From Chrysomallon squamiferum (lineage: Eukaryota; Animalia; Mollusca): a DNA stretch of 64,000 bases. Positions within the stretch are counted from its first letter, which is position 1, and every line of letters begins with the position of its first letter. The notes beneath the pieces were generated by a model. The model made no database searches, was not told where the DNA came from, and was given only the letters and a program-made list of their open reading frames with translations. Location of the stretch: positions 16,616,001 through 16,680,000 of the forward strand of contig CM022676.1 of the NCBI GenBank assembly GCA_012295275.1. Direction: 5' to 3'. Below, piece by piece: positions 1-63,100 of the stretch. Made by a program: the position numbers and the translations under genes.

Positions 1-736
1 ACATTTATTGATCTATAGTGTATATTATGTTTATAAACTCATTTTCTAACGGTTCTTCAATGTTTACCTAATTAGTGTCAGAAAATGAGGCCAACTACGC
101 ATCATAATGATTATGATTATGATTATTGTTAGTTGTAGTAGTAGTATTATTATCGTCACGATCATTTCCATTATTATATCATAGTATTTACTGATTATCG
201 TACCACAGTATCTTTGAAAGCAGTGTTCCACTAGCAGCTTTTGACACTTATTACATTTTCTGACTTTAAATTTATTATTATTATTATTTTTGATCAGACC
301 ATTGGCACAAAACGCCTGTATATCAGAACTTATTATTTATTTGATAATTTCATTTACTAATCCCAAAATAAAGTTGAATTATCTCATACTATTGACCTCA
401 GCGATTGTAAAAGAAGGGAGAGTACTACTTAACAGTTAAAAAAGTCATATGTCTGTGCACGGGTGTATCTGTATATAATTTCAGCTTTTCAGTACATTAA
501 TATGAGAAATATTAGTTGCCGATATTTATGGCAACACTAGAGATAGAGCGACATCTTTATTTTACCCAACTTTATGTTTATTACCGAATATCTGTTACAT
601 AATTTTCTTTACAGGGTAAATATCATATGTGAGTATGTACATGTTTGTTTGTTGTTTGTTTTTTTGCTCTTGTTTTTTATTAAATAAAACTTACTATTGT
701 TATTTACAGATCATATATAAAAAGTTATTATTTCAG

Positions 737-881
737 TACCAGTACGGTTAGTAAATGGAGGAGGAAAACCAACACAAGGTCGAGTTGAGATTCAAGTAAA
801 CGGGACGTGGGGAACAATCTGTGATGATGATTTTGATGAGAAAGATGCTTCTGTTTTATGTCACATGTTAGGATTTAGTCG
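737..881 (+). CDS. SRCR domain exon A (N-terminal half), copy in contig 1
   Basis: tttcag acceptor and gtaatt donor; 145 nt, phase 1->2. Translates as (V)[47 protein letters not shown], with the SRCR hallmarks VRL..G....GRVEI....WGTICDD.F...DA.VLC. Confidence 0.93.
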
Positions 882-1703
882 GTAATTTGTTTATTATATT
901 TGTATTTATTTATTTTTGTTATTTAATGAAATAAAATTCAAAAGTATTTTTACAGACATAGTAGATTCAGATATACTCACAACCAGAAGATAACGAATTG
1001 TTGTTCAAATACATTACACGCGAAATTCCTCTCGATGGAATTTTTCACATTTCAAATATGTTTGTAGGAAATAATGATAATTATAGTAGCTGTAGTATTA
1101 GTAGTAGTATTAGTAGTAGAAGTAGTAGTAGTAGTAGTAGTAGAAGAAGTAGTAGTAGTAGTAAATGTATATAATGCTGCTAAGTATATTTACACTATAT
1201 TAATGGTATTACTGTATCAAACATTGTCCATTAAAATTGTTTCGAAATAATTTAGAAAATAAGTATATTCTTCCGAAAACCTTAGAAATAAACGCACGTC
1301 TACAGAATACTTTTCCAAGAAATTTTTCATAATATTTATTTTATTCATTGTATTTACTTATTATACAAAAATAATAATAATAAGAAGACGAAGAAGAAGA
1401 AAGAAGAAGAAGAAGAAGAAGAAGAAGAAGAAGAAAAGGAAAAGATGAAGAAAACAAGAAGAATAAAGAAAAACACAAAAAATAGCAGTAATGATGATAA
1501 ACGATCGCATTTCATTTAGGATATTTAAACTATCTTTTTCAGTATCAACGCATTGTTTCATTAAACATTGTTGGAATCACATAGAAAGTAATAACTTTCT
1601 TCTCAAAACTTTGACACTAAAATGAGATGTGTTGAAGATGTTTAGTAAACCATGCTCTATAATACTCATTTCACTGTACATATTATTCATTTCTTTTTTG
1701 AAG

Positions 1704-1871
1704 GTTTAATGCAACATCATATCAAAGTGCTCACTTTGGACAAGGAACTGGACCAATATGGGTTGATGATCTGAGTTGTGATGGAGATGAAGACAGTGTT
1801 GAAAAGTGTTCATTTCGTGGCTGGGAAAACACAACTGTGTTCTGGGGAGGATGCTGGTATCAGCTGTCAAT
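1704..1871 (+). CDS. SRCR domain exon B (C-terminal half); 2 nt short, so frameshifted or an assembly error
   Basis: Reads [32 protein letters not shown]. It is 168 nt versus 170 nt for the intact copy at 49167-49336, and the frame is lost in the WGKHNCGH segment. Confidence 0.85.
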
Positions 1872-2685
1872 GTCAGTTTACATTTGACTTTTTATTTCAT
1901 TGTGTATCAATAACACAATGTTTTAACTTGCTGGCATCAAAATTATAATTCGTGTGTTTAATGGTGTTGTACTGAAGTGTGTATCTATCTTTATTTGCTT
2001 TTAGTAATAACTGAAACCAAAAAAATAATTAATAATATCAGGATTGGAAAAAGTAGTCAACTGAAAAGCTAGGTTTAAAAATAACCCTGAATTCATATGA
2101 GATATATTAATGTTGCAGTTATTCGTTATTAGTTACTTTTCTTGTTTGTTTGCTTGTTGTTGTTTATTGGTTTCCTTGTTTGACTGTTTGATTATTTGTA
2201 ATTCATGTAAGACTTAGCATAGGCATCAAAGCTAAACATATACCATTAAGCTGCTTATAACAGAGGAAACTCATCAGTGAACGTTTACAGATTATTCTTG
2301 TTGACTGGCGTATAAATAGGAAAATAAAGTTGGTAAGGGACGAAACAGCTTATATGAAATTTTCAGAAGAAATATATTATTAATCAATTACTAAATCGAT
2401 TTTCCTCAAAAGAAGAAATAAACATGAGAGTTACTGAAAATAACATCAGAAAAAACTTAATAATAAATAATAATAATAATAATGATAATAATAATGATAA
2501 TAATAATAATAATAACAATAATAATAATAATAATAATAATGGTCTTTAATAATTTTAAACACTAGCCTTCCTTCAGAAATGTAATGAAATTTGAAGAAAT
2601 CCACTATCGTAATGGTATTGTAAAATAGCATATGTAAACTGAACGTAAGTTTGGAATTTTATAGTATTTTGTTTATGTTTTTCAG

Positions 2686-2767
2686 TATGTCTCAGGGCTA
2701 GTCAATAGTGGAGGTATTTCAACACAGGGTCGAGTTCAGTTCAAACTTAACGATATATGTGGCACTA
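2686..2767 (+). pseudogene. Truncated relic of SRCR exon A
   Basis: ttcag acceptor followed by [23 protein letters not shown]-like sequence, which then runs into intron-type sequence. The same relic is at ~48281-48361 on the minus strand. Confidence 0.7.
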
Positions 2768-3400
2768 ATAAAGCTAAACTTAAATATTTGACACATTAAA
2801 ACTTTTAATTAATGCACTGATAAAGATTAATTGTCTGGTTCTGTTAATCATAATAATTGTCAATTATGCATAATATTTATAAAAAAAAAATAAAATAAAA
2901 AACGACTGTTAGTTCTATCAAAATAAAAGATCATGTCACTACTTTCTATGCTGATTACATTTAAAAGTAGAAAATACCTAATTTAAAAGAAAATGAATTA
3001 TTTCTTCAAAACGATTTATACTGTGTGTGTTCATTCAAAAGTACTAATAAAGTCAAACTTAAATCTTAGACCACTTTGAATTATCTGATCATATTTCAAC
3101 ATAACAATTTGCCAAATATGTACCGTATTACAATAATAAAAGCAGATTGTTATTTCTGAAAAAAATAAGCTTTACCACTATTTTCTATTCTGACTTTAGA
3201 TTTGCTAAATTAAAAATACTGAGAAAAACAGAGAAACATATGTATTTTAAAACGAGATCTTAGGCGTAAAGTGGTATGCAGTGGTGGAAGAAATTAAATA
3301 TTTTTGGAAAATGGAATAATAAACATCGGTGTGAATTATTATTTAATTAATTATATATTAACCATGGCTGTGTCAGTTCATATTGAAACCTTTCAGTATT

Positions 3401-3470
<70 letters not shown>

Positions 3471-3646
3471 TATTCTGTTTTCATTAAAATAACTATAATC
3501 AAAATCCTTGTTAATCATACAGATGTTCGATGTTGGTATTTATAACAGCGCCAAAGATATGACGGTGTCTGTATTATTCTTTTTTTTCTGAATAATTAGG
3601 CACTATTATAAATGACTGATCATATATAAACCTGTTATTATTTCAG

Positions 3647-3791
3647 TACCAGTAAGGTTAGTGAATGGAAGAGGAATACCAGCACAAGGACGAGTTGAGA
3701 TTCAAGTAAACGGGACGTGGGGAACAATCTGTGATGATGATTTTGATGAGAAAGATGCTTCTGTTTTATGTCACATGTTAGGATTTAGTCA
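3647..3791 (+). CDS. SRCR domain exon A, second copy in contig 1
   Basis: 145 nt AG..GT exon encoding [47 protein letters not shown] (overlaps ORF 3661..3945). Confidence 0.92.
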
Positions 3792-4166
3792 GTATCTATT
3801 TATTGCATTTTGTATTTATTTATTTTTTTTGTTGTTTTATAGACGTAGTAGATTCAATTTTACTCACACAAACATAAAGATAATTAATTGTTCTTCAAAC
3901 ATATTATACAATGAAATTCCTCTTGATGGATGTTCAACATTTTAAATATGTTTGTAAGAAATAATGATATTTGTAGTAGTTGTAGTATTAGTATGCATTA
4001 CTAGTAGTAGTAGTAAAATGTATTATAGTTTTCTTTGATTATATTTACACTTATATTAATGGTATTATTATATATCAAACGTCAGGCATTAAATTTGTTT
4101 AGAAATAAATTCTATAAAATAAAATATATTCTTCCGAAAACCTTAGAACTAAATGCACGTCTGTTG

Positions 4167-13329: not shown

Positions 13330-14559
13330 AAGTTAAATTTTCGAACCAGTGTAAAGTTAAACACAAATTTCTCTCTATCTTCTCAGTCACGTGATACACA
13401 CCAAAGTCTTTCTCTTGCACAGACTTTAAATCGTATTTTCCTACAGCAGTCGCTTCAGTTTGTGAGTCTAGTCCACCAGAACCAACAACTGTCATCCTTC
13501 CGTCCGTCTGTCTGAACCAAGTGAACGTAGGAACTGGGTTGTCATTTCCTGGTATTGTAAGTGTGACGTCATCGCCTTTAGATGGAGCAAATCTTCTCTG
13601 ATAATCGGTTCGAATATCAAGTCTTGGCGAACCCGAGACATGTAAAATTTACTTTTTCATTTAACTTGGTAAAAGTAGATTACATTCTGTCAATACCCAA
13701 AAGCTGTAAAAAAATATAATTTAACTTTATTTTATTTTATATTTTAACAAAAATATATTCTGCATATAAATACCTAATTCAGACTGCACTCTTATTAATA
13801 TGTTAGATCTGTATATTTGTCTATGTGTTTGTCACTAAGTAAGTGTTTCGTGATTTCCACATGAGACTGTATTGATTACTGGCAACATCACATCTGACAG
13901 TAAGGGGAGATAATTCTTCAAGCTCTACCTTCCCATTCGCCGTGGCTAACTTGATGCTTGGCTCATCTGAAATAAGAAATTGACTCATTTCATTTCGTTC
14001 GTTTCCTTTCGTATCGTTTATTTATTTTTTTTTTTTTTTACTTATTTATTATTATTACTTATTTATTATTATTTTTTTATTATTATCTTTTATCGCAGCT
14101 ATTATTTCTAGTACCGCTGCTACTACTACTAGTACTACTACTTCTGCTAGTGCATCTTCTACTCCTTCTATTCCTCTTACTACTATAACTATAACTATTA
14201 CTACTCCTACATCTACTACTACCACTGTTACTGCAAATATTGCTACCGTTACTGCTACTAATATTACTACTACTGCTGCTACTGCTACTACTGCTGTTGC
14301 AACTGCTACTATTACGCATACTGTTACTCATACTCTGCTAGTGTCGCTAGCAGTAATACTTCTATTGTTACTACTGCTACAACTACCCCTGCTGTCGCCG
14401 CTGCAGCTGCTAATACTATCACTACTACTGCTGTCACTATTTCGTCTGCATATTAACACAAATAAGCAGAATGAACGAACAAATATTAAAACAGAAAATA
14501 AATAATTAAAAATAAAGGGAATACAAATTATAGTTTTTATAGTAGTAATAATAATGATG

Positions 14560-19768: not shown

Positions 19769-19859
19769 GGATAATTTACCTTTCCTTTCTCGTTTCAGGT
19801 GATGTCGGTCATCAGGTAATTAAGGTAAATTAAGGGGAACATAAAGATAAGTTAGATAG

Positions 19860-29272: not shown

Positions 29273-29399
29273 ATACGAGCAGAATTGCGACAGACAGAGA
29301 TACCAACAACAGGACATCGGACAGATATACTAAGAAAAGGGCGTGACACAGATATACTTAAAGAAGAGCTTCAAACAGATATACAAAAGAAAGAGCATC

Positions 29400-34090: not shown

Positions 34091-34099
34091 CGGATAGAG

Positions 34100-34760
34100 A
34101 GGCATCCAAAGTGGAGGCTGAAATCACACTTTCAGATATTCAGATGGAAAAATTACACGTAACACGTTCAGGCACCCATTACACAAGAACGGAAAAAAAG
34201 AAGTATATTTGCACAACAAATCAAAACAACAATAATCCCTCAAATAATTCCAAAGCATACAGAGAAAAAGATTTTACATAAGCAAATACGGAGAAAGATC
34301 ATCTCAGAGGAAAATCCGTGAGCGATTATCCAGGAGCAGATAAAGACAGACATAATCCTAAAACAAAGAGAGACGAGTATTTTCAGAATACAAATAAAGA
34401 GAAAAATTATCCCAGAGAAATTAAAACGAGGGATTATCCTAGAGCAAAATTTCACAGCGATTACCGAGGAGAAAAGAGATTAAATAATTATCCCATAGGA
34501 ACTAAAGCCAAGGATTATATTATACCAAAAACTTGCACCTATTATCGAGGAGGAGAGAAATTGAATGATCATCCGAAAATTACATCAGAACTGGATTATC
34601 GAGTAACCAACACAAACAGGGATTATATCCAGGGAAACTCAGACAGTATCTCCAGACTCGATTCGCCTGATACAGACTACACTGTGACGGGAAAATGAAA
34701 AGAAGCATTTAACAGTGGCAGAAGAAGTAGTCACCAAACGAGTAGAGAAAAATAAAGAAG
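34100..34760 (+). pseudogene. Low-complexity coding-like tail with ~10-aa D/N-Y-P/R periodicity, in frame with the KATDSRAAD reading
   Basis: ORFs 33934..34281 and 34318..34698 share a frame, separated by one stop. Recurrent motifs SDYP, KNYP, RDYP, SDYR, NNYP, KDYI, LDYR and RDYI. Confidence 0.5.
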
Positions 34761-35164
34761 AAAGAAAACAAGTAATCACTATGATCAATTTGTTTTAATG
34801 TTTTCAAACGTACACGTATACGTATTATATATAAAGACACAGACATACAACCACACACAAATTACAAATAAATATAATATAATCGTAAAACTGGTACACA
34901 CAATCACCACAAATACAGGCTCACATATATCATAATTTACTTTGTGGTTCTCAATCAGTCAGAGTAAAAATTAATTTAAGTTGTTGGTTTTTGTTGGTTT
35001 TTATTATTATTTTACAGAGTTGTTCAAAGTAAACATTTTATAAGAAAAAACAAAAATCTCTTCCTCGCCAGTTTGTGCTTAAAAGAGTCACACAACAACT
35101 GCAGAGAAGATTCAGACGAGTATGCTGATAAAGACGGTGACGATGATGCTGATTATCTTGCTGC

Positions 35165-36725: not shown

Positions 36726-37793
36726 TTCATAATAAATCGTCTATTTATTTTTAAATGATGAAGCTATAGATTATTATGTAGACAAAAGTGGCATACAAAT
36801 ATATGTGTAACATATAACTGATTATACTAAACCAATTGAGTATCACTGTAGAGACCTGTTTTCACCAGTGATGTAATTCAGTCTTTAGTTGATTGTTTTG
36901 ACGTCCGCTAGATGAGGTGATATTTAAACAGCATCGACTTGAAGACGATAGCCATGCGAGAAGCACAACTGGATTAAGAAGGGCAGAACATTTTGTAAAT
37001 TTGATTGTTGTGGAAATGTTTAGGACATGTTGCTGTTACGGGCACATTTAGGTGAGATGTCGTTACACAACTCTTGTAGTAAGTAAAGAAAGGAAATTTG
37101 TTATAATGCTCATCACTGAGTTTTTATTTTTATTATATTCTATGTTGTTTTATTTATTTTCAATTGTATTTTGCTAAGACGACAAACAACAAAACTATAA
37201 GCATGTTTGCTGAACTGCAATATGTTCGGTGGATAATAATCAAGTCTCTTTTAAAACAATTATTGTTCTGTGCGATAATAACTCATCATCATTATAATTT
37301 ACTGTCCTCAAGTCCGAGAGTTTAGTGCATGTGTGTGCACAAAAAATCAACGCCACACATTTTTGTTACTAGACATTGTTTAATGAGAATCTTACTAGAC
37401 ATACTTAATCACAATTATATTAGATATACTTTAAGCAGAATCATAATAGACACAGTTAGTCACAATTTTACTAGACTGTAGTTGTAGCACATAAAATATA
37501 CCAACAAACACTGTATACTACACATGTAGACATAACAGAAGTATCGAACCCATATACATTTTTTTGGTTTGTTTCTTAAATGGCTCTAAAGGCGTTCTTG
37601 TATGAAAATGATAAAAAATATACATATTTAGCTATCTTTCCTGAATAAGAAAATTCAGTAATGGTGAATACGTGTTACAATATTTGTTCCTATATATGCA
37701 TATATGTGTGTATAGGTGTGTGTTTGTGTGTGATAAAAGTGACAAAATAAGCTCTTTCAATGTTTTAAGTAACCACATTAATAAAGAGATATA

Positions 37794-40195
37794 TTAATTA
37801 TTTCGTCCATTATCATCGACAACAAGCACTTCATATACATTCGGTTCCGGACTGTTCCCTACAAGAAATAAAAAAACATATATACGTATTTATGTTTCGT
37901 TTCAAAAACAGTAAGTCATACTTTAACAATTAAACGTAGAAGTAACAAAAAAACAACAACAACAGATTATTAAATAAAGTAATATATATGTGTGTATACA
38001 AATATATATATATACATACACGCACCTAAAAAATAAAAAATAATAAATATAAAAAACAGAAGTGACAGAGATAAAACAATGTCAAACGCGTTATACAGCC
38101 TAACTTCACCAGATTCTAATTTACAGAGCTATAAAGATAGAAATTGGTTTATGTTGTTTATAAAAGAAGCTCTCATACTGCACAAATATTAGTTTATAAA
38201 CACTCTGTATTTATCACTCACACATATTAAACTTTGCGTATCTGAGGAGATAATATAAATTAGATCTTATCTCATTAACGTCATGCAAAATAACTCACAC
38301 GTTCTTAGCCCAGTATATAAATGAAAACTTTTTTATATTATTATTATTTCATTATTACTTTTCTCCATTCTGTTTCATACTCCTATATTTTCTTGTTCAT
38401 TCATCACTACCTTTAGAAGCTTCTTTCATTCTTTCCTGATGTCTTAAAATGTATTGAACGAGCATAATCTAAACCGCTTTCATTAAAGTAAGGCGTCTTC
38501 CAATAAACATTTAGAAAATATTGCACTTACCAGGCTCAAAAGCAAGATTGTCGTACGTTCTAGACTGCTGTTCAGAAACGTTCCTGTGATTTGAAAGACA
38601 CACATGTTCTAAGTGGTAGTTTTTTTCAGTTTTAATTATAACATTTATAGTCTATAAATGTTATAATTAAAACTGAAAAAAACTATTCAGAATTAAAGAT
38701 TAAATGATTTATTTGTAATAATAGTAATAATAACAAAAAGAGCAATAACAAAAACAATAATAAGAACAATACAGTTATTGATTAACCAATTAAAATAAGA
38801 TACACATAGGAAACAGAGAGAAAAATAATATATATAACAAAATAAATAAATATGTATGTAATAGTACATTGCTGAATATTGTAACTGTGAATTGTTGGAT
38901 AATGACATAACATACATAAGTATTTACATATATAATACATACATAAAGGAAACACTATCAGACAACTAATTAAAATATCTCGGTTATATCTGCATTATTT
39001 ATATGAATAACGTTACATGAAATAAATGTAATCAGTCATTCTTCACGATGTCTACCGAAGTGTCAGTCATTTTATTTCGTCATTTTATGTGATATTGCTT
39101 TCTTGCACAGTTGAATATTTCTGTGTGAAAGACGACAAACAGGGGCACAGAGGCAGACGTCATATACATATCACATACAGACAGAAAGAAAAGCACACAT
39201 CACATAGAGACATATACACACATCACAGATAGATATACATATATACACAATGGTCATACAATATACACAAATAAACACACATACAAAGAGAAACAAATAG
39301 ATACAAGATATTGGATTCAGCTACAAGACAGGCGGATCGTCTGAACAGAAAACCGGGATCTAACTTGTGATGCACCGCTTCGTTCACTCTCTTAATGAAA
39401 ACTGGGTGGTCAAGATTGGACTTTGAAAGCAGCAAACATCATATCAGAAAGATCCCCTACTGGTGGATTACCATTACAGAATATGGTTATAAATGTTTAG
39501 TATAACGTATTCTTGACCTGCAAAGATCAGTTTTCTCACTTCGGAGAAAGATGTATTAATCAATCAACACATTTAAGATGCGTGGTGTAAAATTCAGTAA
39601 GATTGAGGACGACAGCCCAGTGTTGCCTCGAGAGTGAGAGCCTACGTCCAAAGCAGAATGTGTCATCACTCCCTTGATCATCAATAAACCAGTGGCTACT
39701 ACACAGAAATATTTGGACATCAATCGGGAATTACTTACTGTTACAGATTCACTGGTTGTAGAAACTCTGAACTGTGTTCGTTATTTAGAACTGAAAGCTT
39801 CATTTCAACACAAAAATAACCGACTGGAAAGGATATTTTATCAGTAGACTCTTAAGTTTCGTTTCCATAATAAATATATTCATTCATTTGTGAGCAATAA
39901 AATGTACAGTCGCTGTTATACATTAACACATATTCATCAACACATACACTGTTACAAAAATAATAAAGTATATTAATTCCTACTATGAGTCAGTGTTACC
40001 TTGTTTCATGCACATGTTCATCTTTTGCATTTCCTAAAAACAAAAATTTTAAATAAAAATTACAAGTACTGAAATAACAAACACACAAAACAAACAGAAA
40101 ATACTATGAGATGACCTGGTAAACAAATATCACAACATTTATTATATTAAATAATGGTAATTGATAAAAATATACCTTTAATTTTATTTTTATTA

Positions 40196-40264
<69 letters not shown>

Positions 40265-41047
40265 TTAATAAAAATAATAATTATAAGAAGAAGAATAATA
40301 AGAATGATGCTGATGAAGAAATTGCATATGTTTTCTATTTATCTCAAATTGTTTAACTAATACTCATTTTCCGATCTATCACTCTGTCACACATATATGC
40401 ACAGAGAGGAACATGCACTAGGACACAAGTATGCACTTTGAAACTAAAACAAACAGAAAGAAACAGTACGAACCTCTTCTCAGTCTACGACATATGAAAA
40501 TAGTTCCAATAACAAGAAGAGTTAATACGAGAATCCCCGATCCAGATCCAGCAGCGACTGCTATCAAATTATCATTAGACACGTCATCTGAAACAACAGT
40601 TGTTCATTTGAATACAGATATGTCATACAAACCAGTAGTGTTTGAATCATGTATCAACATATAGCCTAAAGGTATATGTATTACAAAACAGAAAATATAT
40701 AGAAATAAAGGTTTAAAATACGACAGATGTAAGTAAGGAAATAAATGTGAAAATGAGAAGAAACCAATTCTAAGTAAATGAAATGTAAGACTATTAATTA
40801 ATTTTGTAATGACTCCATCATTTGAAGTGGAATTACTTTTAATTTGATATCCTTAGACAACTAAATAAATCATAAATGTCATACTAAATATAATATAATA
40901 TTGTAAAAATAGTTCTGGTAAAAGCTAGTAAAGGAAAACATAAATACAAGGAGATGATCATTATCGTTATAAAGATAATTTATATCCAATATCAAGTGTA
41001 CAATTTGTTTTCAAATGTTCCAAATAAAACAAAAACAATATGGAAAA

Positions 41048-41094
<47 letters not shown>

Positions 41095-44000
41095 CAAAAC
41101 AATAAATAAAATTGAGCTCTCAGATAAATACGTATTAGAAACAAATAAAACGATATAATATTTACCTCTACAGGAAAAACAACAAGCACATTATAAATGC
41201 TATTAACGATTACTTATAGACAACGCGACGTGTACAATTTGTTTCCAAATATAGAAGTAAAAAATAAATAAATAATGATTTTTGCAAATTAAACCATGTA
41301 AACTGTTCCACTGCTATGATGGCAGAAAACAAATCAAATCATATCATACATAACTCTATGTAAATGTATTTTACTTCATTATTAATAGACTACCTGTCAT
41401 CAAAATAGCTCTCTCAACAGTAAAACCTTTAACTCCGTATTTGTTATAAGCCAAAATTCTCACAAAATACTTCGTGTCTGATTTCAGAGGCGCTATCACT
41501 GCTCTATGGGTTGTATGTAGACCACGTTCTAGAAATTTCTCTGTGACGTTGTTCCAGTGTGTTGACGTACTTTCTCTGTACTGTACAATGAATGTTTGCA
41601 CGATTCCGCCGTTAAATTCCTCTGTCCAAGACACTGAGATGCCAGAAGAGCTGATTTTCTTTATGTTCACATTGGAAGGAATCCTCGGTGGACCTTGTAG
41701 GCAAAAAAACAGTCAGGCTAATTAACTTTGATAAACATGACCATATGAGAAGAAGAAAGAAAAAATGTGAACATGTGTGTTTGTGTGTCTAAGCGTGTGA
41801 TTGTCTGTCGATGTGTATGTCTGTCTGTGTGTAATATATAGGTGTATGCAAGTTGCTTATTTTACGATTACTGATATTCTAATGTGTGTAAAAATAGCAG
41901 TTACATTTAACAACAAGCTGGACGCTTTGACTGACATCAGACTTGACGTTGTTTCCTGCTTCACAAGTGTAAAATCCTGTATCCAGACATCCAGCTTCAT
42001 TCCAGCTGTACTCCACTGACTTGGAGTTGTTCACTTCACGTAGAATCTGAGATCTGTTTAACAGTTTGATGTGAGCTGCTGGATTACTGTCAACTTCACA
42101 TCTCAGAGTCATGGGAGTCAGCTCATCAACTGTTAACTTTGTAGACTTCGAGTTCAACGTCAAAGATGTGATAGAAGTTCGGTCTGCAATGATAGAATAA
42201 ATGTACTAAATGTGACATCAACGATAATTGAGGTGCAAGATGAAACCAGTCAAAAACTAGTAATTAAAGGTTCAGTAGTGATAAATGCTCCAGAAAGCGG
42301 CAGTCGTTTTACTCCAAAAACAGTTATGTAAGTGTGTTTGTTGTGCAGATAACGACATTGTCTACAATGCTTTAACTTTCATTTTCGTTTACGACGAAAT
42401 TGGAATTAACAAGGAAAAAACGTGAGCAACGGAAAATATTATTTATATTGATTTAATTTAGGAAAGATATTTATAAATAATTGTTCGTTTGTTTCTCACA
42501 CAAGTACTTTTAATACGATATGTAACAGTGTCAGCACATCTACATCACTATCTACTCTGTCACCTTTCTCCAGTAGACTCTGAAGTTTTCTACTGAGGAA
42601 GTTAAAAATTTAACTTCTCACAGAACAAGCAAAAATTTGAAAAAAAAATTAAAAAAAAAAATATATAAAAAGACCAGGTTATGAACATTCAAAAAGAAAT
42701 CATGATAAAACCTACATGTATAAAGCGGACAGTAAAGAGGGAGGACAAATATATTCTACATACAGTTGTCACTCGTTTGTACTCATTAAGAGACATCTAA
42801 GTTCTTGACTGAATAATGTTAGAACTTGAGTCCAGAATAAAGAAACGCTACAATATAATTTACAATATGATAAAAACAAAATTGATTATTGTGAGTAGCC
42901 TATCCTTATTATAGATGAAACGTTACTGATTTGGAAGTGCATTCCTGTCAAAACGAGATAAAGATAAAATAATATGTTGTTTATAAAGTTGAAAAGCTGT
43001 AATAACTGTTTCAGTGCGAATGAGAAATAGCACAGAATTCATAAACTGTGTAAACAAAAGTACAAATTTGTTTTTCTTAATATTTATTTTACTTTTTCTA
43101 CTCTTTTTGACATACTATTTTTATATTTAAAATTGTAATATCATCTGTGAATGTGGACTTACAAAGAACTCTAAGCTGGAACTGGTTACTTCCTGAAAGT
43201 CCAGAACTACTTGCTGTACATGTAAATGTTTGTCCTGTCTGATTTCTGCTCACAAGACCAACAGTTAACTGAGAGCTGTTGACCAAATACTGATCTTCAC
43301 TTCTCCACGTGTAGACACAAGATGAGTCACAATCAGCCACACAGCTCACATTTAGAGTTTCTCCTTCAACAATGTTTCCTGGAGCTGAAGGAATGAAAGT
43401 AACAGAAAGGACTCGATCTACAAGTAGATAAATTAGTAAATGAATGAATGGATATATATATGAATAAAAAGGGAAAGAAGGAAAGAAATATTGTGCATCT
43501 TTGTAACAGGAAAAGAAATGTACATTTATAAACATTAGGATGAATCTTTTAGTTTCTGTTTGAACGGTACATTTACGAAGGAGTCCAACACATATATTAA
43601 TGCACCGTCATAAGTGAATTTTAGTTTTAATGCCTTACGAATAGAAGCAAGATATGTGATTAAAAATAAGAATAAGAATAGTTTTATAGAGCAGAATTTT
43701 GTTTAAAAATGATGACTAAATTTAGTATTGATCAGGGATTTAGTGTGTCTGAAAGTAGCTGGACAAGCAACTCTAATATGGAAAAGGAAACCACTTATTT
43801 ATTTCAATTTCTGATTTTAATGTGGTTTTTCAAATGTGTGATTAAAGAATCATGCTAATGAAATTGAAGTTTTGTTTGAGTTCTGCCTATAAAGAAACGC
43901 TGAACACAAGATACGATCGTTAACACACTATTATCATCATTACCTATGATTTATCTATGTAATAAATTTGTTTTCAGTTTTACAAGATAACACAACATAA

Positions 44001-45782
44001 CTGTCGATTTCTAAAATGATTATGGTAAAATAAACTATATAACTATTTTCCAGTCCCCAAGAGACTGGAAGCAAATAAAATGACACTGTATAGGAATGTG
44101 TGTCACCTCCTTATTAATACACGTACCTGTCATCAAAATATCTTTCTCATCTGTAAAACCTTTATTTCCGTATTTGTTATAAGCCAAAATCCTCAGAAGA
44201 TACTTCGTGTTTCTTTTCAGAAATTCTATCACTGTTCTATGCGTTCTGTGTAAACCAGTTTCTAAAAATTTCTCTGTGACGTTGTTCCAGTGTGTTGAGC
44301 TGTTTTCTCTGTACTGTACTATGAATGTTTGCACGAAGCCACCGTTAAATTCCTCTGTCCAAGACACTGAGATGGCAGAAGAGCTGATTCTCTTTATGTT
44401 CACATTGGAAGGAGGGCTGGGTGGACCTTGTAGGAAAATGACAGTCAGGCTCATTAACTTTGATAAACCTGACCATATTAGAAGAAATAAAAATATTGCG
44501 CTAGTGTATGTTTGTGTGTCTGAGCGTGTTTGTGTATGTGTGTCTGTATGTGTGTTGGTGTATATACTTATATACCAGTGTATGTAAGTTGCTTATTTTA
44601 CAATTACTGATATTCTAATGTGTGTAAAAAATAGCAGTTACATTTAACAACAAGCTGGACGCTTTGACTGACATCAGACTTGACGTTGTTTCCTGCTTCA
44701 CAAGTGTAAAATCCTGCATCCAGACACCCAGCTTCATTCCAGCTGTACTCCACTGACTTGGAGCTGTACACTTCACGTAGAATCTGAGATCTGTTTAACA
44801 GTTTGATGTGAGATGCTGGATTACTGTCAACTTCACATCTCAGAGTCATGTGAGTCAGCTCATCAACTGTTATCTGTGTAGAATTTGAGTTCAACCTCAA
44901 ATATGTAATAGAAGTTTGGTCTGCAATGACAGAAAACTATTTACTAAATGTGAAGTCACTGACTTTTGATCTGCAAAAATTTATCTTATTACGGTACAAG
45001 TAAACTGTGAAAAGATATTTTAAAAATCAGAAAAAAATAATGAACTTTCCAAAAAGCCGATTTCATGGTGTTGAATTCGAATCCAAGGTAAAGAAAAACT
45101 AGAATATAATTTAATTATGACTAGAAAAGAAATGATTGTGAAGGATAAATTCTTAATACAGATGAGATATTACTGGTGTGGAAATGTATGCCTATTACAG
45201 CGGAAAAGAAATGGTAAATGTTTATTTTTTTTAAAACTCTGCATAATGAATGCATAATTTTTTTTTTTTTTTTAAATGTTGAGTTTTTGTTTCAAATATA
45301 GTTTAAAAAAGGTAAAATATGTAAGCGAAAAATCTGAAGACACCATTGGATTTTATTTTAAAATATTTGTATATTTTATTAATATGCTTTTATTTAACAC
45401 ATATTTTGGCGAGACGAGTTAGAAATGTAAACCTGAGATGTGATGTTTATTTATTTATTTATTTATAGCATATTTGTATTTATAGTTGTAAGTTTATCTG
45501 TGAATCTGGAACTTACAGCGAACTCTAAGCTGGAACTCGTTACTTCCTGAAAGTCTATTATAACTTGTTGTACATGTAAATGTTTGTCCTGTCTGATTTC
45601 TGCTCACAGGACCAACAGTTAACTGAGAACTGTTAACCAAATACCGATCTCCACTTCTCCACGTGTAGACACAAGATGAGTCACAATTAGCCACACAGAA
45701 CACATTTAGAGTCTCCCCTTCAACAATGTTTCCTGGAGCTGAAGGAATGAAAGTAACAGAAAGGGCTCCGTCTACAAATACA

Positions 45783-45817
<35 letters not shown>

Positions 45818-46981
45818 ATGCATAAATACATAAACACATAAATAAATAGTATCATTATAACAGGAAATGAAAGATATGGTCTCAGAGTATTAATTTATTA
45901 TGGTCAGAAGAAAAAAAACAAGTGAATAAAAGCAATAATTCTTATTTCAAGTAAAGTTAGAAAAAAAAATTAAAATACAAATTAATTTGATATTTGCTGC
46001 GGGTTTAATGCATTTGAAGATAGCTTTTAAGTAAATGAGATAGATTTTTCATATGAACAGATGGAATTTCATACAGCTCTGCAGTATGTCCAGCCGTTAT
46101 AAAATACATACAGAAAATAAAAATAAATGGAAATACAAATTCTTGAATTAATTAATAAAAACTAAATATAGTCATAAGTAAAGAAAATCTTGGATCATAT
46201 AACGTAATGTATTCAATTGTTACTAGAGACTTCTAACGGATAATGACATTTGAGTGTAAGGATTCCCATCCGAATACTAATATAAAGACAGAATGTAAGA
46301 TGGTGATAAAACATGTGGATGAAATAAGTTAAGCTATTTTGTGAGAAGCTGATGATTACAAAATTAATTTTTTAAATATAATCTTTTGGGCAACATGCAT
46401 CACGTTTTGTAGCTGACAAACAGTTAAATTAAATAATATAAAGTAAAATAAAATGTCAAATGAAAACTGACATTGACAGCTGATACCAGCATCCTCAGAG
46501 TGACCACAGTTGTGTTTTCCCCAGCCACGAAATGAACACTTTTCAACACTGTCTTCATCTCCATCACATCTCAGATCATCAAGCCATATTTGTCCAGTTC
46601 CCTCTCCAAAGTGAGCACTTTGATATGATGTAGCATTAAACCTTAAATAAAATTAATATGCATTGTAAAATAAATAATATGTAGAGTAAAATTAATATTA
46701 TTTAACATGGTTTGCAGAACAGCTTCAACAGATCTTCTCGTAGTCCTGACGTTTTCAGAAGACATTTGTTACTTTGTAAGTGATTTCAACTATGTTTAAA
46801 ATGTATGCTTTGCTACCAAAAGGATAGTGTAAATATCGCCACCGAAATTTGATTATTCAAAGATGACTTGATTATATTTCCTATAACGCTCAAGATCATC
46901 ATTGCTAGAAATTACTACTGCTGTTACTTTTTGTTGTACTTGCTGTTGATGTTCTTTTTTTTTCTTCTTCCTCTCATAGCA

Positions 46982-47024
<43 letters not shown>

Positions 47025-47059
47025 GGTTTTTATATTTATTTTCTAATATTCTTCTTCTT

Positions 47060-47090
<31 letters not shown>

Positions 47091-48549
47091 TTATTATTAT
47101 TATTATTATTAACGATCCTCTCAAAAAGTATTTCACGTAAATATCATCACTAATTTTCATCATCAGTAAAACCAAATAAATTACATCTGTATAAAATATT
47201 CTCTTGCACAAACTCAGTAAGAAAGTAAGTAAGTAGGTAAATAAATGAAGCAGTTACCGACTAAATCCTAACATGTGACATAAAACAGAAGCATCTTTGT
47301 CATCAAAATCATCATCACAGATTGTTCCCCACGTCCCGTTTACTTGAATCTCAACTCGACCTTGTGTTGGTTTTCCTCTTCCATTCACTAACCGTACTGG
47401 TACTGAAATAATAACAGGTTTATATATGATCAGTCATTTTATAATAGTGCTAATTATTCAGAAAGAAAAAAAAAAGTCATATTTTACAGACACAAAGATC
47501 ATATCTTTGGTACAATATAAATACCAACATCGAACATCTGTTATGATTAACAAGCATTTTGATTATTTTTTTTAATGACAAACATTTTAATAGTACTAAT
47601 TTTAATAAAAACAAAATAAAAATAATAATAAAAATAATAATTATAATAATAATAATAATGAAATACTGAAAGGTTTAAATATGAACTGACACAGCCATGG
47701 TTAATATATAATTAATTAAATAATAATTCACACCGATTTTTTTATTCCATTTTACAAAATATTTAATTTCTTCCACCACTGGATACTTCTTTACGCCTAA
47801 GATCTCGTTTTAAAATACATATGTTTCTCTTTTTCTCAGTATTTTAATTTAGCAAATCCAAAGTCAGAATAGAAAATAGTGGTAAAGCTATTTTCTTTTC
47901 AGAAATAACAATCTGCTTTTATTATTGTAATACGGTACATATTTGGCAATTGTTATGTTGAACAGGATCAGATAATTCAGTGGTCTAAGATTTAAGTTTG
48001 ACTTTATTAGTACTTGAATGAACACACAGTATAAATCGTTTGAAGAAATAATTCATTTTCTTTTTAAATTAGGTATTTTCTACTTTAATGTATAATCAGC
48101 ATAGAAAGTAGTGACATGATCTTTTATTTGATAGAACTAACAGTCGTTTTTTATTTTATTTTTTTTATAAATATTATGCATAATTGACAATTATTATGAT
48201 TAACAGAACCAGACAATTAATCTTTATCAGTGCATTAATTAAAAGTTTTTAATGTGTCAAATATTTAAGTTTAGCTTTATTAGTGCCACATATATCGTTA
48301 AGTTTGAACTGAACTCGACCCTGTGTTGAAATACCTCCACTATTGACTAGCCTGAGACATACTGAAAACATAAACAAAATACTATAAAATTCCAAACTTA
48401 CGTTCCAGTTTACATATGCTATTTTTACAATACCATTACGATAGTGGATTTCTTCAAATTTCATTACATTCTGAAGGAAGGCTAGTGTTTAAAATTATTA
48501 AAGAGTACTATTATTATTATTATCATTATTATTATTGTTATTATTATTA

Positions 48550-48583
<34 letters not shown>

Positions 48584-50302
48584 GTTTTTTCTGATGTTAT
48601 TTTCAGTAACTCTCCATGTTTATTTCTTCTTGAGAAAATCGATTTAGTAATTGATTAATAATATATTTCTTCTGAAAATTTCATATAAGCTGTTTCGTCC
48701 CTTACCAACTTTATTTTCCTATTTATACGCCAGTCAACAAGAATAATCTGTAAACGTTCACTGATGAGTTTCCTCTGTTATAAGCAGCTTAATGGTATAT
48801 GTTTAGCTTTGATGCCTATGCTAAGTCTTACATGAATTACAAATAATCAAACAGTCAAACAAGGAAACCAATAAACAACAACAAGCAAACAAACAAGAAA
48901 AGTAACTAATAAATCCGAATAACTGCAACATTAATATATCTCATGTGAATTCAGGTTATTTTAAACCTAGCTTTTCAGTTGACTACTTTTTCCAATCCTG
49001 ATATTATTAATTATTTTTTGGTTTCAGTTATTACTAAAAGCAAATAAAGATAGATACACACTTCAGTACAACACCATTAAACACACGAATTATAATTTTG
49101 ATGCCAGCAAGTTAAAACATTGTGTTATTGATACACAATGAAATAAAAAGTCAAATGTAAACTGACATTGACAGCTGATACCAGCATCCTCCCAGTGACC
49201 ACAGTTGTGTTTTCCCCAGCCACGAAATGAACACTTTTCAACACTGTCTTCATCTCCATCACAACTCAGATCATCAACCCATATTGGTCCAGTTCCTTCT
49301 CCAAAGTAAGCACTTTGATATGGCGCTGCATTAAACCTTCAAAAGAAATGAATAATATGTACAGTGAAATGAGTATTATAGAGCATGGTTTACTAAACAT
49401 CTTCAACACATCTCATTTTAGTGTCAAAGTTTTGAGAAGAAAGTTATTACTTTCTAAGTGATTCCAACAATGTTTAATGAAACAATGCGTTGATACTGAA
49501 AAGATAGTTTAAATATCCTAAATGAAATGCGATCGTTTATCATCATTACTGCTATTTTTTGTGTTTTTTCTTTATTCTTCTTGTTTTTCTTCATCTTTTT
49601 CCTTTTCTTCTTCTTCTTCTTCTTCTTCTTCTTCTTCTTCTTCTTCTTCGTCTTCTTATTATTATTATTTTTGTATAATAAGTAAATACAATGAATAAAA
49701 TAAATATTATGAAAAATTTCTTGGAAAAGTATTCTGTAGACGTGCGTTTATTTCTAAGGTTTTCGGAAGAATATACTTATTTTCTAAATTATTTCGAAAC
49801 AATTTTAATGGACAATGTTTGATACAGTAATACCATTAATATAGTGTAAATATACTTAGCAGCATTATATACATTTACTACTACTACTACTTCTTCTACT
49901 ACTACTACTACTACTACTTCTACTACTAATACTACTACTAATACTACAGCTACTACAATTATCATTATTTCCTACAAACATATTTGAAATGTTAAAAATA
50001 CCATCGAGAGGAATTTCGCGTGTAATGTATTTGAACAACAATTCGTTATCTTCTGGTTGTGAGTATATCTGAATCTACTATGTCTGTAAAAATACTTTTG
50101 AATTTTATTTCATTAAATAACAAAAATAAATAAATACAAATATAATAAACAAATTACCGACTAAATCCTAACATGTGACATAAAACAGAAGCAGCTTTCT
50201 CATCAAAATCATCATCACAGATTGTTCCCCACGTCCCGTTTACTTGAATCTCAACTCGACCTTGTGTTGGTTTTCCTCCTCCATTTACTAACCGTACTGG
50301 TA
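37794..50302 (-). CDS. Type I membrane receptor SRCR-SRCR-Ig-Ig-FN3-Ig-Ig-FN3-TM-ITAM-like tail. Exons: 50158-50302, 49167-49336, 47258-47402, 46472-46641, 45517-45771, 44642-44920, 44127-44426, 43163-43417, 41905-42183, 41394-41693, 40474-40587, 40000-40033, 38531-38583, 37794-37858
   Basis: All 14 exons have an AG acceptor, all but the last have a GT donor, and phases are compatible (2564 nt, ~854 aa without the signal exon). TM is [31 protein letters not shown]. The tail is [51 protein letters not shown] signal-peptide exon was not found in this contig. Confidence 0.85.
38617..38685. repeat. Perfect palindrome, 34 bp arms with a 1 nt spacer
   Basis: tagtttttttcagttttaattataacatttatag-t-ctataaatgttataattaaaactgaaaaaaacta. 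Confidence 0.95.
41394..45771 (-). repeat. Intragenic tandem duplication of a three-exon Ig-Ig-FN3 module
   Basis: Paired exon sizes 255/279/300 nt occur twice with highly similar translations and similar flanking intron ends. Confidence 0.93.
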
Positions 50303-51207
50303 CTGAAATAATAACTTTTTATATATGATCTGTAAATAACAATAGTACGTTTTATTTAATAAAAAACAAGAGCAAAAAAACAAACAACAAACAAACATGT
50401 ACATACTCACATATGATATTTACCCTGTAAAGAAAATTATGTAACAGATATTCGGTAATAAACATAAAGTTGGGTAAAATAAAGATGTCGCTCTATCTCT
50501 AGTGTTGCCATAAATATCGGCAACTAATATTTCTCATATTAATGTACTGAAAAGCTGAAATTATATACAGATACACCCGTGCACAGACATATGACTTTTT
50601 AACTGTTAAGTAGTACTCTCCTTCTTTTACAATCGCTGAGGTCAATAGTATGAGATAATTCAACTTTATTTTGGGATTAGTAAATGAAATTATCAAATAA
50701 ATAATAAGTTCTGATATACAGGCGTTTTGTGCCAATGGTCTGATCAAAATAATAATAATAATAAATTTAAAGTCAGAAAATGTAATAAGTGTCAAAAGCT
50801 GCTAGTGGAACACTGCTTTCAAAGATACTGTGGTACGATAATCAGTAAATACTATGATATAATAATGGAAATGATCGTGACGATAATAATACTACTACTA
50901 CAACTAACAATAATCATAATCATAATCATTATGATGCGTAGTTGGCCTCATTTTCTGACACTAATTAGGTAAACATTGAAGAACCGTTAGAAAATGAGTT
51001 TATAAACATAATATACACTATAGATCAATAAATGTTACTGTAATATCATACCTTACATAATATAAAATGTATCAGACATTCTACTTTAAATGGGCATATA
51101 AAATAAGTGTTTTGTGAATATTATATATAATTCACTACACAGAAAACAAAATTACACCTAAAAAAAATAAGTCTGGCAAAGAGGCACTAATAAGTCACAC
51201 AGACGTG

Positions 51208-51242
<35 letters not shown>

Positions 51243-52538
51243 ATATAAAATTGTATGAATTGTTTCTCGCAGCGTAAACATATAATACAGGTATTTTGTA
51301 ATCGGATAGCTAACTTAAACCAACTGTGCACATTGTCGGATTATATATACAACTATTGTGCATTCCATCAACGAACAAACAAACAAAAGTTAATAATTAG
51401 ATTTGATTCACACTTAATAATAGGGATGACTCACAGACATTAATTATGTTAAAATGTAGCGACTGTTCGTCCAAGCTAAACGAATGATAATGGTTTATAC
51501 TTGTGAAACACTGACTGGAGAAGTTTTATGATATTTCTCGGAGCAAAAAGCCGTTTCGTACATTCCGGTTTCGAGATTCTCAATATGCATAGGACTGTTT
51601 TAGGTTAATGTTATTTGTCTTTGTTTTACTTTTTATTATTTATTTATTTATTGATTATTTTTTGTCTTTTACATGTTACAGAACGTTACAGCTTACGTAG
51701 AGATGATTTCATAACGTTATTTTCGTTTTCAGATTTGTAATGATGCTGAAACGATACCCGCATAACCAATATAGCAAGTACATATTTGCTGCTTATTTAT
51801 GTCAAATAAAAATAGTCTGTGACTGCTGCACGAAATACACAGAGGTATACCTGGATCTTACTAACTATTATCTGAAAAAATGTATTGTTAATACAATACC
51901 TGCGCTTAAGTGGAGAAATAAATAGGAAAGTAGAAAACATTTACGTTTATCAACATTCAAGATAAATTATAGCAACTGCTGAATAATAATAATAATAATA
52001 ACTAGAAAGACAACGACAACAACAATACACTATAACAAAAATGAAGAAAAAATAATAAATGTAATTAGATACATTTAATTATTTCAGCGATGTTTTCTTC
52101 ATCTTCTTCAGTTATTAATAGACGGGACAGAACATCGTTTATCGAAACAGCAGTGAAATACATTACATATTCAAATTTCGTGAATTAAATTCATAGCAAG
52201 TTTAAATCATAAACATTATAGTTGAATGTTATCTTGATCTTCCTCTTCTTCTTCTTCTTCTTTTTCTTCTTCTTCTTCTTCTTCTTCTTCTTCTTCTTCT
52301 TCTTCCGTTATTATTAGACAGCTCTGAACAGCAGTAAAATGCATTTGGCAATGATATTCAAAGAATTATATTCATAGGAAATTGAAATCATGAAAAGAGG
52401 CATAGGTGGAGAGTATTTCAGAAAATTAAATAGCAAATCAGGTTTCCCTTCGTTGACCGTGAAAATCAAATAATAATAATAATAATAATAATAATCTAGT
52501 CTTATAAATCGAAACAAATTATTCACGTTTTTTTTAAG

Positions 52539-52593
<55 letters not shown>

Positions 52594-52792
52594 TTTGTTT
52601 ATTTATTCTTGGTTTTTTATTATATATTTATAATGTATCGATTAACTGAGCTCAAAACGTTAATAAGTTTATCAGTGTTTTCAGCCAACATCTGCTAGAA
52701 ACGCAAGAAAATCTTTGGTGTGTAATCTACGCGATTATTCTTCAACCAGCAAATTCTACTTCCTTATTTTAATTATTATTTATTTTATTCTT

Positions 52793-52834
<42 letters not shown>

Positions 52835-53248
52835 ATTATATATTATAATTTATAAGTGCAAGGAATAATTGTATCGATGAATGGAGTGCAAAAGGGGAAA
52901 AACTTCAGTGTGTGATCTACGCGCTACCTACAAATTCTACGTGTTTATTTGTATTATTGTGTTTTTCATTCTTGGAGTTTTATTATACATTTCTTAATGA
53001 CCAAGCAGCCTGGAAGAAAACGTTCTTATATTTGTATCGTACTGTTAAAGTATAACTTCACGTATCTGCTATAAACTGACATTTCCTTTCAATTGTAAAT
53101 CACACGCCAAAGTAGGTCTGCTCGATGTTTGCCAACAGTTTATTGCAAACTGGTTTTTCGAATCTTTTCTGAATCAGTCAAACATTCCGCTCTGCTGGAC
53201 ATCAAGAAGCAGTATATCAAATAAATGCTGTAGCAGCGGATAACTCAC

Positions 53249-53271
53249 AATTAATAGAAAGTATTTTTCCA
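53249..53271 (-). other. Homologue of the 24-nt microexon, here 23 nt (defective or an assembly error)
   Basis: ctaaag|TGGAAAAATACTTTCTATTAATT|gtgagt on the minus strand, with flanks similar to those of 58626 and 59171. Confidence 0.45.
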
Positions 53272-55496: not shown

Positions 55497-55911
55497 AAGG
55501 ATTATCCTAGAACAAAATTTCACAGCTATTATCAAGGAGAAAATAAATTCAGGACTTATCCCATAGGAACTAAACCCAAGAATTGCATTAGGCAAAAAAA
55601 CTTGCACCTATTATCGAGGAGGAAAGAAATTGACGGATCATCCGAAAATTATATTAGAACTGGATTATCGAGTAACGAACACAGACAGGGATTATATCCA
55701 AGGAAACTCAGACAGAATCTCAGACTGGATTCACCTGATAGAGACGACACTGTGATGGGAAAAAGAAACGAAGCATTTAACAGTGACAGAAGAAGTAGTC
55801 ACCAAATGAGCAGAGAAAATAAAGAAGAAAGACAACAAGTAATCATAATTATCAATTTCATTTAATATTTTGATACGTAGACGTATACGTATTATATATA
55901 AGGACATAGAC
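55497..55911 (+). repeat. Diverged paralogous copy of ~34430-34845 (DYP-periodic tail and 3' flank)
   Basis: Shared ggattatcctaga.caaaatttcacagc, acttgcacctattatcgaggagg, gaactggattatcgagtaac and gaagcatttaacagtg. Confidence 0.9.
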
Positions 55912-62600: not shown

Positions 62601-63100
62601 TTATGATTATATTTTAAAAAAAAAAAAATATAATTTAAAAACAAAATAAATTCTTACTTCAAATGATTTATACTGTGTGTTTATTCAAGCACTAATAAAG
62701 ACAAATTTGAATCTTAGAGAACGGAATAATAATAGTTAATAAATACAATTATAAAGTTGAATTATCTGATCCTGTTTAGCACAATAATTGTCAAATATAT
62801 ACAATATTACAATGACAAAAACAGATTATAGGTATTTTCCTTTAACAAATATTCTTGCAAATGAAAACTATCGTATTTCTGTATATATAGTTTTCTTTCT
62901 GAAGAAATTGTACTATTATAATTGACTGTCTTATATAAACCTGTTATTATTTCAGTACCAGTACGATTAGTGAATGGAAGAGGAATACCAACACAAGGTC
63001 GAGTTGAGATTCAAGTAAACGGGACGTGGGGAACAATCTGTAGCTGTAGATTTGACACAAAAGATGCTGGTGTTCTCTGTTCAATGTTGGGATTTAGTCG
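57540..63100 (+). CDS. 5' part of a paralogous SRCR receptor: signal exon 57540-57594, candidate microexons 58626-58649 and 59171-59194, SRCR-A exon 62956-63100 (gene presumably continues beyond the window)
   Basis: MCFFAYVWLYIVIPTVIS-G|gt (phase 1) joins in frame to ttcag|TA CCA GTA CGA, giving [48 protein letters not shown]. Intron sequence at ~59676-59820 is homologous to 52340-52475 (reverse), and 62410-62950 to the SRCR introns. Confidence 0.75.
58500..59560. repeat. Diverged ~545 bp tandem duplication containing the microexons
   Basis: gaccctag/aggc, cagtggaa.gatacattcctgttaa.tgtgagtt, ctgacctaaata and taactaaaattgtgcttta each occur twice. Confidence 0.85.

Follow-up and report, generated by a model that had tools for sequence, protein, structure and literature searches.

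Mixed scavenger receptor cysteine-rich (SRCR) architectures with Ig or FN3 domains have been reported in invertebrates generally (PMC7308585, PMC5119243, bioRxiv 2024.01.21.574862), and FCRLS is a mammalian Ig-SRCR chimera (PMC7940838); these and the other papers identified below by such numbers are cited from excerpts of their text. Here, we analyzed a receptor gene from Chrysomallon squamiferum (scaly-foot snail), which lies on the minus strand at positions 37794..50302 of the window, namely the 64,000-nucleotide stretch of contig CM022676.1 (assembly GCA_012295275.1, positions 16,616,001 to 16,680,000) that was studied as a whole. A sequence-only reading of this DNA had proposed two SRCR domains, a duplicated Ig-Ig-FN3 stalk, a transmembrane (TM) helix and an ITAM-like tail (ITAM, immunoreceptor tyrosine-based activation motif).

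Among the closest described systems, the oyster receptor CgIgR is likewise a molluscan type I Ig receptor with a paired YxxL tail, but it has five Ig domains, an 8-residue spacer and a Glu three residues before the first Tyr, with no SRCR reported in the excerpts (PMC6994640). WC1 and CD163c-alpha are membrane SRCR receptors from multigene families and signal via a Y-E-E/D-L/I motif, WC1 and CD163 being group B, and the teleost proteins P0161, P0164 and P0167 join SRCRs, Ig and TM as the window receptor does, with no FN3 in their Pfam lists. The likeness of both sets to the window receptor is likely convergent. DMBT1/SALSA shares with it the SRCR fold (matches to PDB 6sa4/6sa5, E 1e-11 to 1e-14) and six cation-site residues, but is secreted, belongs to group B and carries CUB and ZP domains without Ig, FN3 or TM. 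The Alr genes of Hydractinia are clustered invertebrate genes encoding Ig, FN3-like and TM regions with diverse tails bearing ITAMs or inhibitory counterparts (ITIMs) (PMC9546547); they lack SRCRs and form a cnidarian allorecognition complex, and are likened here by layout, not by homology. Genome papers on vent snails describe expansions of SRCR proteins and pattern-recognition receptors, and the SRCR-Ig-FN3-TM layout is not described in their excerpts (PMC7736800, PMC7895826). No description of an SRCR-Ig-FN3-TM receptor family was found in excerpts of the open-access full-text literature, subscription journals lying outside this scope. The window gene is a real gene that combines familiar parts, and it belongs to an undescribed, unnamed, exon-shuffled modular gastropod family.

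Spliced in silico, 14 exons with GT-AG introns throughout form a single open frame of 854 codons, with compatible exon phases (1,2,1,2,1,1,1,1,1,1,1,1,2,1), 26/26 internal splice dinucleotides intact and one stop, at 37794-37796. The exons run in the order SRCR (two exons), SRCR (two exons), IgA, IgB, FN3, IgA, IgB, FN3, TM and three tail exons, as follows.

50158..50302, minus strand: SRCR1 first half, phase 1 to 2, the first exon found (Pfam SRCR, E 3e-13)
49167..49336, minus strand: SRCR1 second half, phase 2 to 1 (splice model, Pfam)
47258..47402, minus strand: SRCR2 first half (Pfam; 97% DNA identity to SRCR1 first half)
46472..46641, minus strand: SRCR2 second half, donor to the first Ig exon (Pfam; junction homology)
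45517..45771, minus strand: Ig type A, copy 1 (short of the Ig_2 cut-off at E 4e-5; Gigantopelta IgA at 41-44%)
44642..44920, minus strand: Ig type B, copy 1 (Ig_2 E 2e-9; 69-75% to Gigantopelta IgB; donor in an RNA joint)
44127..44426, minus strand: FN3 copy 1 (fn3 E 3e-11)
43163..43417, minus strand: Ig type A, copy 2 (Pfam; donor in RNA joints of X1 and X3)
41905..42183, minus strand: Ig type B, copy 2 (74-78% to Gigantopelta IgB; acceptor in RNA joints)
41394..41693, minus strand: FN3 copy 2 (Pfam; acceptor in an RNA joint)
40474..40587, minus strand: transmembrane exon (hydropathy; TM homology; acceptor used by an X3 RNA contig)
40000..40033, minus strand: predicted cytoplasmic exon 1, phase 1 to 2 (splice model)
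38531..38583, minus strand: predicted cytoplasmic exon 2, bearing YDNL (splice model)
37794..37858, minus strand: predicted cytoplasmic exon 3, bearing YEVL and the stop (splice model)
37123..37158, minus strand: candidate polyadenylation signals, in the form of three AATAAA hexamers (weak evidence, in AT-rich DNA)

The 14 phase-compatible exons of the sequence-only reading were thus recovered with fitting coordinates, AG acceptors, GT donors and phases, and the junctions 46472->45771 and 40000->38583->37858 stand in the DNA letters as it had written them. Pfam scored SRCR above the cut-off in 4/4 half-exons, fn3 in 2/2 exons and Ig_2 in 2/4 Ig exons, both IgA exons falling slightly below the Ig_2 cut-off of 27 (24.2 and 26.7), and gave no CUB or ZP match among the model exons. 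Exon order and Pfam domains together bear out the layout of two SRCRs, a duplicated Ig-Ig-FN3 unit and a TM segment, and the 14-exon SRCR-Ig-FN3-TM receptor gene is real.

A phmmer search with the second FN3 returned 1910 matches; of the best 150, the 12 at 46% identity or more were examined: seven were RefSeq proteins of Gigantopelta aegis, four were single-FN3 fragments without a name, and one was an unrelated protein. Two further searches (23 and 19 matches) brought the family to 20 Gigantopelta genes in all, 15 of which lie on one 53.39 Mb sequence. Six of the 20 join SRCRs to the Ig/FN3 stalk, whereas 14 share the stalk without SRCRs. The SRCR-bearing models, XP_041372788 (P0180), XP_041372560-563 (P0134, P0152-P0154) and XP_041372971/972 (P0151/P0001), have group A SRCRs, IgA, FN3 and TM in common with the window receptor, under the automated names DMBT1-like, titin-like and DSCAM-like. 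Their layouts are SRCR3-(Ig-FN3)5/6-TM, SRCR4-Ig-FN3-TM, SRCR5-Ig-FN3-TM and SRCR7-Ig5-FN3-TM, with two further models that are 5'-partial (SRCR-Ig-FN3-TM) or cut short in FN3. They differ from the window receptor in their 3-7 SRCRs, mostly preceded by a signal peptide, and in an IgA-FN3 unit (one to six copies) or a multi-Ig-FN3 stalk; neither (IgA-IgB-FN3)x2 nor a 12-spaced tyrosine pair occurs in any of them. The SRCR-less paralogs P0155-P0160, P0118, P0097, P0178 and P0179, named hemicentin-, nephrin-, syg-2-, NCAM- or contactin-like, share IgB, FN3, the TM region and tyrosine-rich tails with the window receptor; they differ in that several carry an Ig-like tip in place of SRCRs, and in two further Ig types.

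The best evidence that the SRCR and Ig exons form one gene is the homology of their junction: five Gigantopelta proteins align with it gap-free across 54 columns (48-54%) and a sixth across 55, all six being automated gene models. This supports the earlier claim that SRCR, Ig, FN3 and TM belong to one gene. The accompanying remark that the architecture was not recognised from a named family holds in that no named family was found in the literature searched, but the architecture is not unique, since homologs stand in RefSeq under misleading names. The SRCRs of the receptor are closest to P0180 (60-67%), which also has IgB, its TM to the SRCR-bearing P0134/P0152 (59-62% over 29 aa) and its IgB to SRCR-less members (69-78%), with FN3 up to 56% identical. 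Because SRCR, TM and IgB are each nearest to different members, the window gene is a new combination of family modules. No close match in other molluscs appeared among the best 150 of the 1910 phmmer matches, a list crowded by multi-FN3 proteins. A word-based search that used FN3 alone gave no match in 43 candidates, even though relatives at 55% exist, and is hence insensitive. The protein-cluster atlas (clusters of at least 50 members) yielded generic FN3, NCAM-like and fish SRCR-Ig clusters, none of those listed having SRCR, Ig and FN3 together. Orthology to nephrin, SYG-2 or DSCAM was not found, the receptor having four Ig domains plus SRCRs versus 8-10 Ig domains, with nephrin at 21% and protogenin at 24%.

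The internal repeats of the receptor are 87-97% identical in DNA. Between them, 88 substitutions over 1134 bases have produced 0 stops (chance about 0.01), and 1/21 Cys/Trp codons has changed. The ratio of nonsynonymous to synonymous substitution (dN/dS) is 0.75, with a 95% bootstrap range of 0.47-1.29. Because no stop has arisen and the exons paired between the repeats share the same length, in contrast to the paired intron with its alignment in 6 blocks, the reading frame looks maintained while residues appear to change freely. The predicted ectodomain contains 15 N-glycan sequons.

We also compared four RNA runs (X1-X4) at 85% likeness with positions 37000-45400, outside which the SRCR exons lie; for splice joints, 15 of the 44 are listed. 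Run X2 covers introns and looks like DNA. In the others, most contigs are <95% alike (77/96 in X1, 99/121 in X3 and 46/55 in X4) and therefore derive mostly from paralogs. Among the joints listed, the IgA-to-IgB joint 43163/42183 was found at the predicted sites in X1 and X3 and the IgB-to-FN3 joint 44642/41693 in X1, X2 having no joint at either kind of site; tail-exon joints were absent from the same 15. These data indicate that the stalk exons of the receptor family are spliced at the predicted sites. In X3, one low-depth contig from a paralog uses a GT inside FN3, at 41471, and joins the TM acceptor 40587 out of frame; in the letters of the window, such a joint would meet a stop immediately and yield a product that lacks the membrane anchor. 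In addition, X2 depth is higher on exon bins than on intron bins, which hints at many paralogs and gives no copy number. RNA cover is low on the bins of the tail exons, a result to which we attach no weight.

Both SRCRs of the receptor have six cysteines and are split over two exons, and they are therefore assigned to group A; six cysteines also occur in 20/20 parsed Gigantopelta SRCR domains. DMBT1 is a group B protein with eight cysteines per domain (PMC10855680), so the 'DMBT1-like tip' of the sequence-only reading does not hold. The same applies to its bacteria-binding GRVE..W peptide, as the receptor reads VEIQxxxxW rather than VEVLxxxxW and the peptide is buried in the SALSA SRCR structures, irrelevant as a ligand site, binding taking place via a dual cation site (PMC7043408). 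The six residues of that site, D, D, D, D, N and E, are kept in both receptor SRCRs. Their offsets are 0,1,40,41,63,68 in both domains versus 0,1,39,40,62,67 in SALSA, as mapped by spacing with the PMC7043408 numbering and not by direct alignment. The SRCR pair is thus likely to bind polyanions in a Ca2+-dependent manner, which polyanion not being indicated. The idea that the SRCRs are half-domain chimeras was dropped, as P0180 natively has the same domain type.

The predicted cytoplasmic tail has 55 residues and reads YDNL-x12-YEVL, just as described before. When the tail was shuffled 200,000 times, 0.05% of the shuffles contained a tyrosine pair spaced by 6-12 residues, a motif that had been picked after it was seen. 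The tail contains two YxxL/I half-motifs, YDNL and YEVL, and no match to the inhibitory or switch motif (ITIM/ITSM) patterns [ILVS]xYxx[LIV] or TxYxx[LIV]. FcgammaRIIA has an ITAM with a 12-residue spacer, a figure for which our literature search found no paper. Draper-Shark signalling and the built-in ITAM of FcgammaRIIA are confirmed in outline (PMC2915791). The spacer of 12 fails the ITAM consensus used for Hydractinia Alr, which has a 6-9 spacer (PMC9546547), and lies at the limit of the x6-12 consensus of oyster CgIgR; the latter also has D/E three residues before the first Tyr (PMC6994640), where the receptor has Ser. Thus, of the proposed ITAM-like activation motif the two YxxL/I halves stand, but not an x6-9 spacer, a leading acidic residue or conservation in SRCR-bearing relatives. 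The tail is better described as one with atypical tyrosine motifs, in the manner of WC1/CD163c, than as a canonical ITAM.

Tails vary across the family, with a 7-spaced YxxL pair in four genes, YxxL-x7-YxxM in three and other tyrosine motifs or none in the rest, a variety expected of an immune receptor cluster. In SRCR-less Gigantopelta genes, these forms are YSSL-x7-YDVL (4/14) and YEGL-x7-YAKM (3/14). Judged by motif, canonical ITAMs exist in the receptor family but not in the window gene: YSSL-x7-YDVL occurs in four SRCR-less paralogs and not in the window receptor. The SRCR-less paralogs with 7-spaced tyrosine pairs are P0155-P0160, P0118, P0097 and P0178, and their YEGLG..TPY form resembles the oyster CgIgR ITAM as printed (PMC6994640). 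On account of the 7-spaced pairs and this CgIgR-like form, these paralogs are better ITAM candidates than the window gene.

Starting from the observed exon structure, domains, cation-site residues, same-layout relatives and family stalk splicing, we infer the remaining steps of a possible mechanism. In the reading that we favour, at even chances, the gene encodes a predicted single-pass surface receptor; its SRCR pair, carried by a stalk of six domains, would bind polyanions of microbes via Ca2+, and its tail tyrosines would drive uptake. The two group A SRCRs would bind polyanionic surfaces such as lipopolysaccharide (LPS) through Ca2+ bridges, at low affinity but high avidity, in the manner of SALSA/MARCO. 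The six Ig/FN3 domains would serve as a spacer, its length tuned by duplication of phase-1 exon blocks. Clustering of the receptor would let Src-family kinases phosphorylate YDNL and YEVL, which could then bring in SH2 proteins, either Syk/Shark or, at YxN, Grb2, and thereby trigger phagocytosis or endocytosis. Grb2 binds at YxN, and an acidic context together with YxN suits SH2 binding. Counted in favour of this reading are the cation site, the six SRCR-stalk genes, the 15/20 clustering, the tail variety, the fast divergence and the non-random tyrosine pair. In addition, bacterial binding and Syk recruitment have been shown for an ITAM-bearing Ig receptor of the oyster (PMC6994640), and a scallop haemocyte SRCR receptor binds LPS and peptidoglycan (review PMC7308585).

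Several observations weigh against this microbial receptor. The cation site is common to most SRCRs and so is no pointer to microbes; SALSA uses it for bacterial protein, heparin and hydroxyapatite (PMC7043408). Binding of the latter two fits a different reading, in which the gene encodes an epithelial adhesion or matrix receptor whose SRCRs bind chitin, glycosaminoglycan or mineral, with a nephrin/SYG-type stalk and tyrosines that link cytoskeletal adaptors. The up to 65 tandem 'DMBT1' genes of the scaly-foot snail, high in mantle/scale epithelium (PMC7142155), also fit it, as do the Ig and FN3 proteins detected in its sclerites and the expanded membrane Ig families listed, by BLAST name only, in the same paper (PMC11871041). 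The atlas neighbours are NCAM/turtle/nephrin-like (score 0.84-0.85, leads only). However, the domain table of the 'DMBT1' set, as excerpted, has no immunoglobulin, fibronectin or FN3 entry and may describe a different family (PMC7142155). Moreover, near-neutral divergence, many paralogs and a mixture of ITAM and motif-free tails are a better fit for immune receptors than for conserved adhesion molecules, and we regard a matrix role, though genuinely supported, as unlikely.

The tails of the relatives count against the microbial receptor as well. A tyrosine pair spaced by 6-12 residues was found in 0/6 SRCR-bearing Gigantopelta genes; two of these have tails without a tyrosine motif and one gene has no TM, while the remaining three carry YDTL/YDQI/YENL motifs 2-54 residues apart. 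None of 16 relatives matched the receptor tail significantly (best E 0.14). YxxPhi is the sorting signal recognized by the clathrin adaptor AP-2, and both YDNL and YEVL fit it; on this view, the protein would be a purely endocytic scavenger receptor without kinase signalling. The non-canonical, unconserved tyrosine spacing and the single YDTL motifs repeated 19-54 residues apart in SRCR-bearing relatives point the same way. Yet SRCR-less relatives have true 7-spaced pairs, and the acidic context and YxN of the tail suit SH2 binding. Single YEEL-type motifs, moreover, signal in the SRCR receptor WC1 (PMC2906472). Endocytosis alone seems to us a distinctly unlikely function.

The remaining points against the microbial receptor concern this particular copy. 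In the FN3 tree, the window receptor is not grouped with SRCR-bearing genes and its sister group is unresolved. RNA contigs at least 99% alike, which bear on expression of this copy, number 7/96 in X1, 5/121 in X3 and 1/55 in X4. At the 5' end, homology searches and a scan for ATG-hydrophobic-GT gave 0 candidates for a signal-peptide exon in 50310-55911, the 5.6 kb of sequence between the first exon and an assembly gap at 55912. As no such exon was found and the first exon found begins in phase 1, the model is 5'-incomplete. Six leader candidates beyond the gap, three per strand, were considered and none was accepted, several lying in low-complexity DNA. The surrounding DNA contains further pieces of the family.

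1..3797, plus strand: inverted 96.4% copy of 47252-51035, ending near a scaffold gap at 4167
737-881, about 1704-1871 and 3647-3791, plus strand: SRCR exons in the inverted copy (sequence copy)
13349..13958, minus strand: degenerate exons, IgB-like and IgD-like, from a different member of the family (Gigantopelta paralogs match at E 3e-19 and 7e-4)
48282..48361, minus strand: dead relic of an SRCR first-half exon in intron 2 (56-60% to family SRCR starts over 25 aa)
62956..63100, plus strand: further SRCR first-half exon of the same family with intact splice sites and no partner exon within the window

In the inverted copy, the exon at about 1704-1871 has three small indels and is frame-shifted as assembled, and the match of the relic at 48282..48361 ends after about 25 codons. 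Taken together, these copies indicate that the receptor locus belongs to a duplicating cluster. The locus itself could then be a 5'-truncated, silent or mis-assembled copy, the family being real but no such protein arising here. The missing signal exon, the dead relic, the frameshifted inverted copy and the degenerate Ig exons nearby, the scarcity of near-identical RNA contigs and a dN/dS not distinguishable from 1 would all suit this. Against it stand the 26/26 intact internal splice dinucleotides, 0 stops after 88 substitutions (p about 0.01), 1/21 Cys/Trp codons changed and the homology of the SRCR/Ig junction to six independent genes, and we consider such a copy quite improbable.

Other features of the window lie outside the receptor gene. 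On the plus strand, 4625-8094 holds exons that resemble the C-terminal half, with a TM end, of CLCA (calcium-activated chloride channel regulator), although Pfam gave no CLCA match on them; as the SRCR copy at the window start is parted from these exons by a 200-N gap, an SRCR-CLCA fusion there was discarded. A 414-codon open frame at 8610-9851 on the minus strand, with a partial copy at 16321-16544, has no Pfam match and contains tyrosine motifs such as YDVI; it lies downstream of the degenerate Ig exons 13349-13958 and could be a long cytoplasmic exon. Positions 19833-21193 hold a low-complexity Ser/Thr/Ile-rich repeat with a 430-codon open frame, either mucin-like or a plain minisatellite. 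Plus-strand open frames at 27537-34139 resemble a ZNFX1/NFX1-type helicase fragment and pass into a tandem repeat array of 4.7 kb, where both strands have long open frames. Direct repeats at 34419-34844 and 55487-55911 (87%) flank the receptor gene, and another pair lies at 58487-58856 and 59038-59399 (79%).

The SRCR proteins of invertebrates are commonly taken for pattern-recognition receptors, though their signalling route is rarely visible. In the family described here, a single chain combines a tip of SRCRs, a stalk of Ig/FN3 domains and tyrosine motifs, with sister genes that have textbook ITAMs or none. A broader, doubtful possibility is that relatives of the vent snail carry an undescribed cluster resembling the leukocyte receptor complex, in which phase-1 exon shuffling would put SRCR arrays or Ig-type tips on one Ig/FN3 stalk and join the stalks to tails that bear an ITAM, bear atypical tyrosines or are silent; in that case, this gene would be an activating scavenger member that tells apart and engulfs bacteria, chemosynthetic symbionts possibly among them. 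The parts of the receptor are all familiar, which limits the surprise. In RefSeq, the family is dispersed over entries named after DMBT1, titin, DSCAM, hemicentin and nephrin, and the 'DMBT1 expansions' of snail genomes may mix unrelated architectures. The family offers concrete candidates for Syk-type signalling and microbe recognition in gastropods, with possible relevance to symbiont control, because its closest known carrier hosts endosymbionts.

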